Assembly: GCA_016294985.1 (NCBI GenBank)
Contig: JAECRW010000001.1
Coordinates: 1 to 38,446, forward strand
Reading direction: 5' to 3'
DNA: 38,446 bases
Source: Candidatus Sifarchaeum marinoarchaea
Lineage (GTDB): Archaea > Asgardarchaeota > Sifarchaeia > Borrarchaeales > Borrarchaeaceae
The position numbers and the translations under genes were made by a program. This document shows, piece after piece, positions 22,802 to 23,769 of the stretch. Each line of letters starts with the position of its first letter. Positions within the stretch are counted from its first letter, which is position 1. A model generated the notes under the pieces. That model was not told where the DNA came from. It saw only the letters and a program-made list of their open reading frames with translations, and ran no database searches.

Positions 22802-23236
22802 TTGCATGTTTATGACAGCAGGCTATCTGATATTCTTTCTGAAGTTCTTTCAGGGTCATCGGAGATTAATGTTAGCCTCTTATGTTCGCATGAAGGTTTT
22901 CCAAAGGCGTTCGCTATGGATTTAAAAGCAGAGGAAGATGTTGTGCTCCTAGCAGCTATGTCAAGCGCAGTATATTCTATTTCAAATCAAGCCGTAACAC
23001 AATTAAATACGGGACCCCTCTTGACAACATCGATTGAAGGCGAAAGAGGGACTTTGTTATTAAAAGATTTAGGAGATTTTATTTTTGTTGCCCATGTCCC
23101 TAAAACTAAAACAGACAAAGAACTAGGCGCGAGGGTGAGAAGTTATCACATAGGCATTGCCATGAATGTTATGGAGGCAGCCGCTGAGAAGATTAAGAAG
23201 TACCTTGAGGATTTAGCGAAAGAGTCTTCTGAATAG
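22802..23236 (+). CDS. Roadblock/LC7 (MglB-like) domain protein
   Basis: 144 aa with a TTG start. The size and pattern (SEINVSLLCSHEGFPKAF...LAAMSSAVYSISNQAV...IEGERGTLLLKDLGDFIFVAHV) fit the Roadblock/LC7 fold family. Confidence 0.65.
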   Translation: MHVYDSRLSDILSEVLSGSSEINVSLLCSHEGFPKAFAMDLKAEEDVVLLAAMSSAVYSISNQAVTQLNTGPLLTTSIEGERGTLLLKDLGDFIFVAHVPKTKTDKELGARVRSYHIGIAMNVMEAAAEKIKKYLEDLAKESSE

Positions 23237-23249
23237 CTATTTTTAGTTA

Positions 23250-23660
23250 GATGCTAGAAGTGAACTACTCCACCCTTACGGATGGAGCTTCCTGCGAGTC
23301 CTCCCAACCCTTGCGGGAAACTCTCGTTTTACGTTCGGCTGTGTGTCGCAGATCATCCCCCTTTGAGGATGGCCCGTCCACCTGGCATTCTGTGATAGCA
23401 ACCTTCAGTTGCAGCATCACACCATACGGATTCGTCAAATGCTATTGTACTGTTACCTTCGCGATTATTCGCGCGGGTTAGCAACTGTACGAATCCTCGC
23501 TCACAGGGGCGCCTCTTCTGTCATCCTACCGGGAGTTTTGTATCCCTGTCTTCCTCCCGATATTCATCATAACTTTTCTGTGCAAAAAAACTATATAAAG
23601 CTAGCGGCTTTCATCCCCCCACCTTTCGGAAGGGGACTTCCCGCCGATAAAGTTAAAAAT
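23250..23660 (-). ncRNA. Large GC-rich structured ncRNA (~400 nt); RNase P RNA is my best guess, identity and exact ends unconfirmed
   Basis: This is a GC island in an AT-rich genome; the one 60-nt line I counted, 23281-23340, is 34/60 G+C.

Many nested helices are visible. On the minus strand three hairpins close with GNRA loops:
- CUCCAUCC-GUAA-GGGUGGAG at 23268-23287
- CCC-GCAA-GGG at 23308-23317
- CC-GAAA-GG at 23622-23629

At least three positions are G.U pairs on the minus strand but C.A mismatches on the plus strand. Minus-strand motifs GGCGGGAAGUCCCC (23645-23632) and GCACAGAAAAG (23583-23573) resemble RNase P CR-I and the GCCACAGAAA element.

The two plus-strand ORFs here (23251..23481 and 23409..23675) look like artefacts. 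Confidence 0.55.
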
Positions 23661-23769
23661 GAAGGCTATTTGTGAATTGATTTTGCTTGAATATCATTCT
23701 GTGTTGTCACCATTTTTTTCAAAAGAAAAATAAGAGGCAATGTCGATTTTATGATTAGGTGATTTAACT

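Follow-up and report, generated by a model that had tools for sequence, protein, structure and literature searches.

Between the Roadblock and DUF4139 genes of an Asgard archaeon, Ca. Borrarchaeum, lies a compact GC-rich island, and the question is what it encodes. The initial annotation had read it as a structured, non-coding RNA on the minus strand, either a divergent RNase P RNA or an undescribed large RNA. We analysed this island within a 38,446-nt stretch of DNA (the window) from an assembly of 1.81 Mb in 301 contigs that is 69% complete (G000). GC content along the window was 0.50–0.52 at 23200-23500 and roughly 0.30–0.44 in the flanks. Compared with dinucleotide shuffles, the minus strand of the island folded at -161.3 kcal/mol (z = -6.3) and the plus strand at -133.6 kcal/mol (z = -4.25). 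The structure of the island is far above chance, and the minus strand is preferred. To this extent the first description held up. The island is GC-rich and structured; all of the helices that had been named were found on the minus strand of the 23232-23672 region; the three GNRA loops expected there (GAAA, GCAA and GUAA) were present; the choice of strand agrees with the folding energy and with G.U pairs that recur on the minus strand in an alignment of homologues (alignment A1, below); and the reading of the island as non-coding was supported. The limits stood in part, with an island indeed present at 23232-23672 but the exact element limits, 23260-23652, slightly inside. The element lies 23 nt 3' of the Roadblock stop codon (the gene ends at 23236) and 117 nt 5' of the start codon of DUF4139; relative to either gene it is antisense. 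A tRNA/tmRNA scan found neither.

The best explanation overall (probability roughly 0.88) is that 23260-23652 on the minus strand is a 393-nt non-autonomous IS200/IS605 element, of the kind called palindrome-associated transposable element (PATE) or 'standalone omega-RNA' element. Its parts are listed in Table 1.

Table 1. Parts of the element and its immediate flanks, in window coordinates
Feature	Position	Strand	Basis or remark
TTTAA target / transposon-adjacent motif (TAM)	23653..23657	-	directly 5' of the element
Whole non-autonomous IS200/IS605 element (PATE), 393 nt, CUUUAUCGGCGGG to GGAGUAGUUCAC	23260..23652	-	sharp ends in 21 copies; filled and empty sites
Left-end (LE) near-terminal hairpin GGCGGGAAGUCCCCUUCCGAAAGGUGGGGGGAUGAAAGCCGC	23604..23645	-	LE homology in several Asgard families; predicted helix
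Archaeal TATA-box-like CTTTATATAG	23591..23600	-	LE alignment of PATE and full-length elements; promoter role probable
PATE-specific 58-nt module, hairpin CGGGAG/CUCCCG with GAUGA motifs on either side	23512..23569	-	
Helix CGGGAGG/CUCCCG	23560-23553 / 23535-23529	-	named in the initial annotation and found
Upstream candidate omega-RNA hairpin GGAUUCGU...ACGAAUCC	23428..23496	-	from an internal tnpB segment; covarying homologue in intact tnpB
Arms GGAUUCGU / ACGAAUCC	23496-23489 / 23435-23428	-	enclose UGCUA/UAGCA and the CGCGA...UCGCG hairpin
Hairpin GUGAUGCUGCAAC-UGAAG-GUUGCUAUCAC	23392..23420	-	predicted helix
Candidate core omega-RNA scaffold (decayed tnpB 3' end plus right end, RE)	23260..23427	-	alignment A1, RNAalifold, pair counts
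Strongly covarying hairpin inside the core scaffold	23372-23353	-	alignment A1
Frameshifted TnpB C-terminus remnant (...RLLSQNARWTGH... / ...DDLRHTAERKTRVSRKGWEDSQEAPSVRVE*)	23268..23420	-	tblastn E = 9e-10
RE near-terminal hairpin GCUCCAUCC-GUAA-GGGUGGAGU	23267..23288	-	helix 6 of A1, 9 pairs, 4 with double changes
Putative omega-RNA guide UUCUAGCAUCUAACUAAAAA, flank directly 3' of RE	23240..23259	-	by position and by analogy with characterised TnpB omega RNAs

Copies, insertion sites and mobility

We searched 61 related genomes by BLAST with a 441-nt minus-strand query. Full-length matches of ~400 nt, at 78–93% identity, turned up repeatedly in the own genome, on contigs C13, C106 and C289 with a partial one on C1, and also in each of the four other genomes of the genus. 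Overall, the copy number was at least 4 full copies in the own genome and 3–10 in the sister genomes, and the island is one copy of this ~390-nt repeat of Ca. Borrarchaeum. The near-complete sister genome G003 held three full copies, one shortened copy, ~7 loci with only the 3' module beside tnpB, and several solo 5' ends. Separate partial matches covered the first ~75 nt alone or the last ~140 nt alone, and in the phylum's other families matches were confined to the terminal ~50 and ~35 nt. When 21 full-length copies were aligned with MAFFT together with their 60-nt flanks, similarity stopped abruptly outside (T)TTAA-C...GTAGTTCAC, and the flanks were unrelated. Copy length was uniform at 389–393 nt, except for one 78%-identical copy of 404 nt, and the copies occupied unrelated genomic contexts.

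The termini of the element, CTTTATCGG... and ...GTAGTTCAC, form no inverted terminal repeats, and a subterminal hairpin lies at each end. Of the 21 aligned copies, 19 had TTTAA immediately 5' of them and all had TTAA. Searching the joined flanks of ten copies against five genomes of the genus revealed three independent insertions with orthologous unfilled sites (filled on G001:C106, empty on G000:C93 and G004:C85; filled on G004:C52, empty on G002:C206; filled on G001:C102, empty on G004:C93, G003:C4 and G002:C142). In all three pairs, ...TTTAA was followed directly by N... in the empty site and read ...TTTAA-[C...GTTCAC]-N... in the filled one, with zero duplicated bases. Insertions were intergenic, 3' of TTTAA and in either orientation. 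For the window's own site, no clean empty counterpart was found in the sister genomes, where a second Roadblock paralog sits; the window insertion is not conserved at its site in these genomes. The element is polymorphic and mobile within Ca. Borrarchaeum genomes. Its TTTAA-specific insertion without duplication and without terminal inverted repeats is the 'peel-and-paste' signature of the IS200/IS605 family. PATEs were defined in Haloquadratum, where HqIRS71 keeps part of the tnpB C-terminal region (PMC3119063), and the lack of target duplication and of inverted repeats, together with the subterminal hairpins, places the Borrarchaeum element within that published definition.

Descent from tnpA/tnpB transposons

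We traced the parts of the element to longer relatives. Its first ~70 nt and last ~140–230 nt match the LE, the tnpB 3' end and the RE of full-length IS605-type elements, with the sense strand of tnpB corresponding to the window's minus strand. At G053:C105, the sequence between the matching 5' and 3' parts encodes a Y1 transposase of 135 aa (PF01797, E = 5e-37) together with a TnpB of 427 aa that has domains PF01385, PF07282 and PF12323, and at G007:C37 and several G003 loci the matching ends enclose tnpB alone. Among the related loci, LE/RE matches flank tnpA plus tnpB in L035, L074 and L075, and tnpB only in L036, L038 and L051–L053. In several Asgard families, elements that carry tnpB, alone or with tnpA, have an LE homologous to the LE hairpin region. 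The sole protein similarity in the element is the frameshifted TnpB C-terminal remnant of ~55 aa, detected by tblastn with the TnpB of L035 and L036, in a region that forms the end of intact tnpB genes on the same strand; a Pfam search of the island's 57-aa ORF gave no match. A further ~60-nt segment is 72–75% identical to an internal tnpB region.

By these matches, the element descends through internal deletions from a tnpB-bearing IS605/IS1341-type transposon. It has kept the LE, including the subterminal hairpin and the probable promoter of tnpB (TATA box), a pair of segments from the tnpB 3' region that encode the omega-RNA scaffold, and the RE, again with a subterminal hairpin.

Candidate partners are present in the genus. 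The own genome has a stop-free tnpB of 395 aa on C290, broken by the contig end, and fragments on C101, C198 and C168. An intact 426-aa TnpB homologue in G003 aligns over residues 7–376 to ISDra2 TnpB (8BF8, 8EXA, 8H1J) at low identity (E ~ 6e-16), with DLGI, GEL and RDKN at the RuvC positions, of D/E/D type. One intact tnpA (PF01797) was found in each of the genus's two complete genomes, G003 and G004, beside a tnpB with the same RE; tnpA was not detected in G000, G001 or G002, which are MAGs 69–77% complete. A related-locus search placed more distant TnpB relatives in Hermodarchaeota, Promethearchaeota and Methanohalophilus/Methanolobus.

Covariation and competing identities

We then asked whether the predicted helices are supported by homologous loci, as the initial annotation had proposed to check. 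Alignment A1 comprised 39 distinct 3' modules (154–183 nt) that belong to copies of the PATE or to intact tnpB elements of several genera, and RNAalifold gave 33 pairs in 6 helices for it. Standard pairs made up 97.6% of cells, compared with 90.0% in column shuffles and 35–46% in slid-partner controls. Double changes were seen at 13 pairs, and 103 cells covaried against 37.6 expected, a level reached by 0 of 500 shuffles. The hairpin at 23372-23353 showed covariation at six of its seven pairs, with CCUC/GGGG, CGGG/CUCG and CAAG/CUUG variants, and the RE hairpin at four of nine. The core scaffold also has two long-range helices (GUGGAC/GUUCAC and CUGCGA/UCGCAG) that show practically no variation and are therefore compatible with structure, not proven. 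In the window copy itself, pair 245/259 of alignment A2, within the GUGAUGCUGCAAC/GUUGCUAUCAC hairpin, carries a compensatory change from GC to CG. Alignment A3 extended this to the upstream hairpin, which has a homologous hairpin within intact tnpB genes and covarying pairs (AU/GC 17:16; UA/GC/CG 25:18:2). In PATEs, its apex has been swapped for a different GC-rich sequence with the pairing kept, which coding constraint cannot explain; this indicates selection on the hairpin as RNA, or as a single-strand structure. As judged from these alignments, the helices are conserved with compensatory changes across PATE copies and intact tnpB elements.

The covariation signal comes largely from full-length elements and is sparse within PATEs, so the window copy could be an inert relic, that is a decaying IS605 deletion derivative that makes no functional RNA and whose hairpins matter, if at all, as DNA for TnpA. 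The frameshift in the TnpB remnant and the failure to detect tnpA in the own, 69% complete MAG fit such decay, and the established IS608/ISDra2 mechanism requires the LE/RE hairpins as DNA (PMC10055086). However, the copies are uniform in length and keep the promoter and a complete omega-RNA scaffold; the internal helices covary, also inside intact tnpB genes, and TnpA has no known need of them; the replaced apex of the upstream hairpin still pairs; and the compensatory change lies in the window copy. Related copies also occur in metatranscriptome assemblies. Logan contigs from sediment metatranscriptomes hold copies 85–95% alike, mostly covering 23258-23511 and breaking at the RE boundary, which is weakly consistent with a ~250-nt omega RNA, these contigs being directionless, possibly including DNA and deriving from related copies rather than from the window locus. 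Weighing these points, we consider an inert relic unlikely.

The middle of the element raises a different possibility. About 90 nt (about 23493-23587), holding the 58-nt module, have no counterpart in the parental elements; this segment matched neither tnpA nor tnpB, and no standalone host gene was found for it, its only matches being the element's own copies and a second PATE family. That family, of ~451 nt (G000:C291:5118-5568 and G003:C7:548304-548759), is otherwise unrelated, with another tnpB family as its source and an LE, a TATA box and an RE of its own. Its 58-nt module is 86% identical to that of the window element family, and in both families the module starts about 22–27 nt 3' of the TATA box. 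Among 12 genomes searched, the module did not occur outside PATEs. It forms a 6–8-bp hairpin with GAUGA motifs on both sides. A C/D-box sRNA was considered for it on a weak sR3 C-box match and rejected, as the box spacing misfits the order C / guide / D' / C' / guide / D. That the module is a functional acquisition, such as an L7Ae/K-turn-type or a processing or stabilising 5' domain, seems unlikely, and a K-turn or stabilising role is speculation. If true, the domain might make PATE transcripts stable standalone guide RNAs, or it might mark a step on the way to Asgard hosts co-opting the guide RNAs of TnpB.

Domestication could have gone further, with the whole standalone omega RNA, or just the 5' module peculiar to PATEs, acting as a host regulatory RNA on its neighbours, for example as antisense to the Roadblock 3' end. 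The closeness of the element to both genes and its antisense orientation would suit such a role, as would an extra module common to two PATE families and lacking in the parental transposons. Yet the insertion is not conserved at its site in the sister genomes, the copies sit in unrelated contexts, and the module is confined to PATEs. The putative guide lies just 3' of the Roadblock gene end without overlapping it, and antisense overlap with the Roadblock 3' end would arise only via read-through past 23240. We regard host regulation as highly improbable.

The same holds, more strongly still, for RNase P. The element resembles archaeal RNase P RNA (RF00373) in size, GC-richness, GNRA loops and a few short minus-strand strings like CR-I and ACAGAA, but these strings are chance resemblances in the LE hairpin and the omega-RNA core. 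The proposed look for another RNase P RNA gene returned a canonical RNaseP_arch gene in the own assembly (C124:4155-4540, 206.7 bits). Archaeal SRP RNA (RF01857), also considered, was set aside, with no match in the window and a genuine Archaea_SRP gene at C194:7738-8055 (166 bits). With both genes found, on other contigs, these two housekeeping RNAs are already accounted for. Against Rfam, cmscan at gathering thresholds matched nothing anywhere in the window, and at E <= 10 the 23100-23800 region gave only chance-level hits (LOOT, HgcC and sR3; E ~ 5), RF00373 not among them. Moreover, the element is mobile and transposon-derived, with ends homologous to IS605 ends, and its several copies per genome and presence/absence polymorphism do not befit a single conserved housekeeping locus; the objections raised at the outset (P2/P3 absent, the bulged U paired) hold. 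A divergent RNase P RNA thus has a negligible probability. The other proposal, an undescribed large RNA, gives way to an IS200/IS605 deletion derivative with an omega-RNA region, a class already described. A false lead is thereby removed, as either a further RNase P of non-canonical layout or a novel large RNA in an Asgard archaeon would have been notable. A group II intron without an ORF, or else some other self-splicing or retro-element, was suggested by a multi-copy, structured ~400-nt repeat with longer relatives holding an ORF between conserved 5' and 3' parts, but was dropped once those inserts proved to be tnpA/tnpB, encoding Y1 transposase and TnpB and not a reverse transcriptase, and it too has next to no probability, with no Rfam match to domain V/VI or D1–D4, RNA-level ends CUUUAUC...GUUCAC and not GUGYG...AY, and intergenic insertion 3' of TTTAA in both orientations.

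Proposed mechanism and known systems

We return to the PATE, or standalone omega-RNA element, as the preferred reading. The TATA-like box lies about 45–50 nt 5' of the tnpB ATG in full-length elements of the LE alignment, and because it is conserved with them, the PATE probably retains the LE promoter. By analogy with characterised systems, this box probably drives transcription of the element into a scaffold for TnpB guide RNA. A transcript that starts at the LE promoter and continues past the RE into flanking DNA would be roughly 250–310 nt long, and its 3' extension (UUCUAGCAUCUAAC...) would act as the guide, supplied by flank sequence beginning at 23259. TnpB from full-length copies would bind this RNA and cut vacant TTTAA-flanked sites, which would favour retention, homing and re-acquisition of the element. 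Mobilisation is, by the same analogy, probably in trans by TnpA, the Y1 transposase recognising the LE/RE hairpins and moving the element as single-stranded DNA. Trans mobilisation, a guide from the 3' flank and cutting by TnpB are modelled on the established IS608/ISDra2/ISGst mechanism (PMC10055086, PMC10691335).

Among known elements, the closest in architecture is HqIRS71 of Haloquadratum walsbyi (Dyall-Smith et al. 2011, PMC3119063). Both lack inverted terminal repeats and target duplication, have near-terminal palindromes related to IS605-type ones, are too short for a transposase, and arose by internal deletion with disrupted tnpB C-terminal ORFs kept. The likeness is one of architecture, not drawn from sequence comparison, and unlike the haloarchaeal PATEs, the Borrarchaeum element has an Asgard host and keeps an omega-RNA scaffold of ~230 nt plus the 58-nt non-parental module. 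PATEs often encode omega RNAs acted on by TnpB in trans (Meers et al. 2023, PMC10055086), and standalone omega RNAs function with compatible effectors supplied in trans (Altae-Tran et al. 2021, summarised in PMC10691335). The Borrarchaeum element shares with these a mobilised omega-RNA locus without effector or transposase, a genome that also holds TnpB-bearing copies with matching ends, a guide from the flank 3' of the RE (predicted here) and a TAM 5' of the LE. Trans activity was shown for bacterial standalone omega RNAs, whereas we infer it for the Borrarchaeum element, which differs further in its TTTAA TAM and in a scaffold that appears longer, with the upstream hairpin about 170–240 nt before the RE.

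In the comparison with the ISDra2 TnpB-omega RNA complex (8EXA, 8BF8, 8H1J), nearly the whole of the cognate TnpB can be aligned. The sense strand of the tnpB 3' end and the RE encodes the RNA in both cases, and both systems have a 5-nt T-rich TAM, whereas the RNAs have no detectable sequence similarity and no Rfam model matches the element. The TAM is TTTAA in Borrarchaeum and TTGAT in ISDra2.

The element type is already known, and what is new is the example in an Asgard archaeon. IS200/IS605 is the most abundant archaeal IS family and occurs in >65% of Asgard genomes (PMC13343696), and expression of omega RNAs is known from archaea (PMC12558985). The empty sites and the covariation document for Ca. 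Borrarchaeum a TnpB/omega-RNA system that looks active and has TTTAA as its TAM, and the candidate omega-RNA scaffold with its conserved upstream hairpin could modestly serve studies of TnpB guide RNAs. The element ends, TTTAA followed by CTTTATCGGCGGG ... GGAGTAGTTCAC, can be used for masking other copies.

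A second PATE family and the shared 58-nt module

Besides the window's PATE family, we found a second non-autonomous IS200/IS605 family of ~451 nt. Its left end is distinct (TTTTAC immediately followed by ATGTAGCTAAGC..., with the hairpin CCCACUCC/GGGGUGGG), it has its own TATA-like box and its own right end (...GCCCACUGUUUUAGUUGUGGGUAGUUCAC), and its kin is a different tnpB family of the window's genome, G000 (contigs C151, C188, C48, C181 and C289:7741-8078). A 58-nt module is common to these two PATE families only, and full-length tnpB elements lack it. In both families a TATA box lies directly upstream of the module, in which GAUGA motifs stand on either side of a hairpin.

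Coordinates of the module, the pairing, the fragment and the second-family copies (G003, a same-genus genome; A2, alignment of window-type copies)
Feature	Location	Strand	Remark
58-nt module	window 23512-23569	minus	common to two PATE families only
GCAAC/GUUGC pairing of window PATE	window 23408-23412 / 23398-23402	minus	A2 pair 245/259
Second PATE family copy	G000:C291:5118-5568	minus	
Second PATE family copy	G003:C7:548304-548759		
Right-end/omega-RNA fragment	G000:C124:2538-2691		same IS family as window PATE

Variation among PATE copies and tnpB elements

At A2 pair 245/259, G-C is kept in 18 of the 21 aligned copies, mostly as GGAAC/GUUCC or GGAAU/GUUCC. The window copy, with GCAAC/GUUGC, carries a compensatory G-C to C-G exchange, confined to a single copy lineage. 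Another copy (L047, G004:C88:1490-1889) has the palindrome-bounded segment CCCGCAAGGGUUGGGAGGACUCGC inverted inside its omega-RNA core.

One tnpB subfamily (L051, L052 and L053 in G003, together with L080 and L081) stops 12 codons early (...KVSPxVGS*). Its EDSQEAPSVRVG-coding sequence is conserved unaltered though untranslated, which suggests that a role in RNA or at the element's end, and not protein coding, has preserved it.

The insertion locus and neighbouring repeats

Comparison of the Roadblock-DUF4139 gap (window 23237-23769) with three sister genomes revealed in each a second Roadblock-like paralog between the two genes (L054, G002:C229; L055, G004:C84; L056, G003:C6), with ~67-69% nucleotide identity to window 22801-23005. 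G000 lacks this paralog, and the PATE fills the gap instead. Either a deletion at or close to the PATE insertion removed the paralog, or the other genomes acquired it.

About 1.5 kb separates the C124 fragment from the true RNase P RNA gene (C124:4155-4540). Separately, a repeat of ~70 nt (CACGCTAAAGCCGTGAGGCTTTTAGCTGTACTTGG...) occurs at G000:C106:~2477-2547 and at many loci in G000-G004, with dozens of copies genus-wide at 86-97% identity. A second, different repeat, also ~70 nt long, flanks the PATE copy on G001:C31 on its left.
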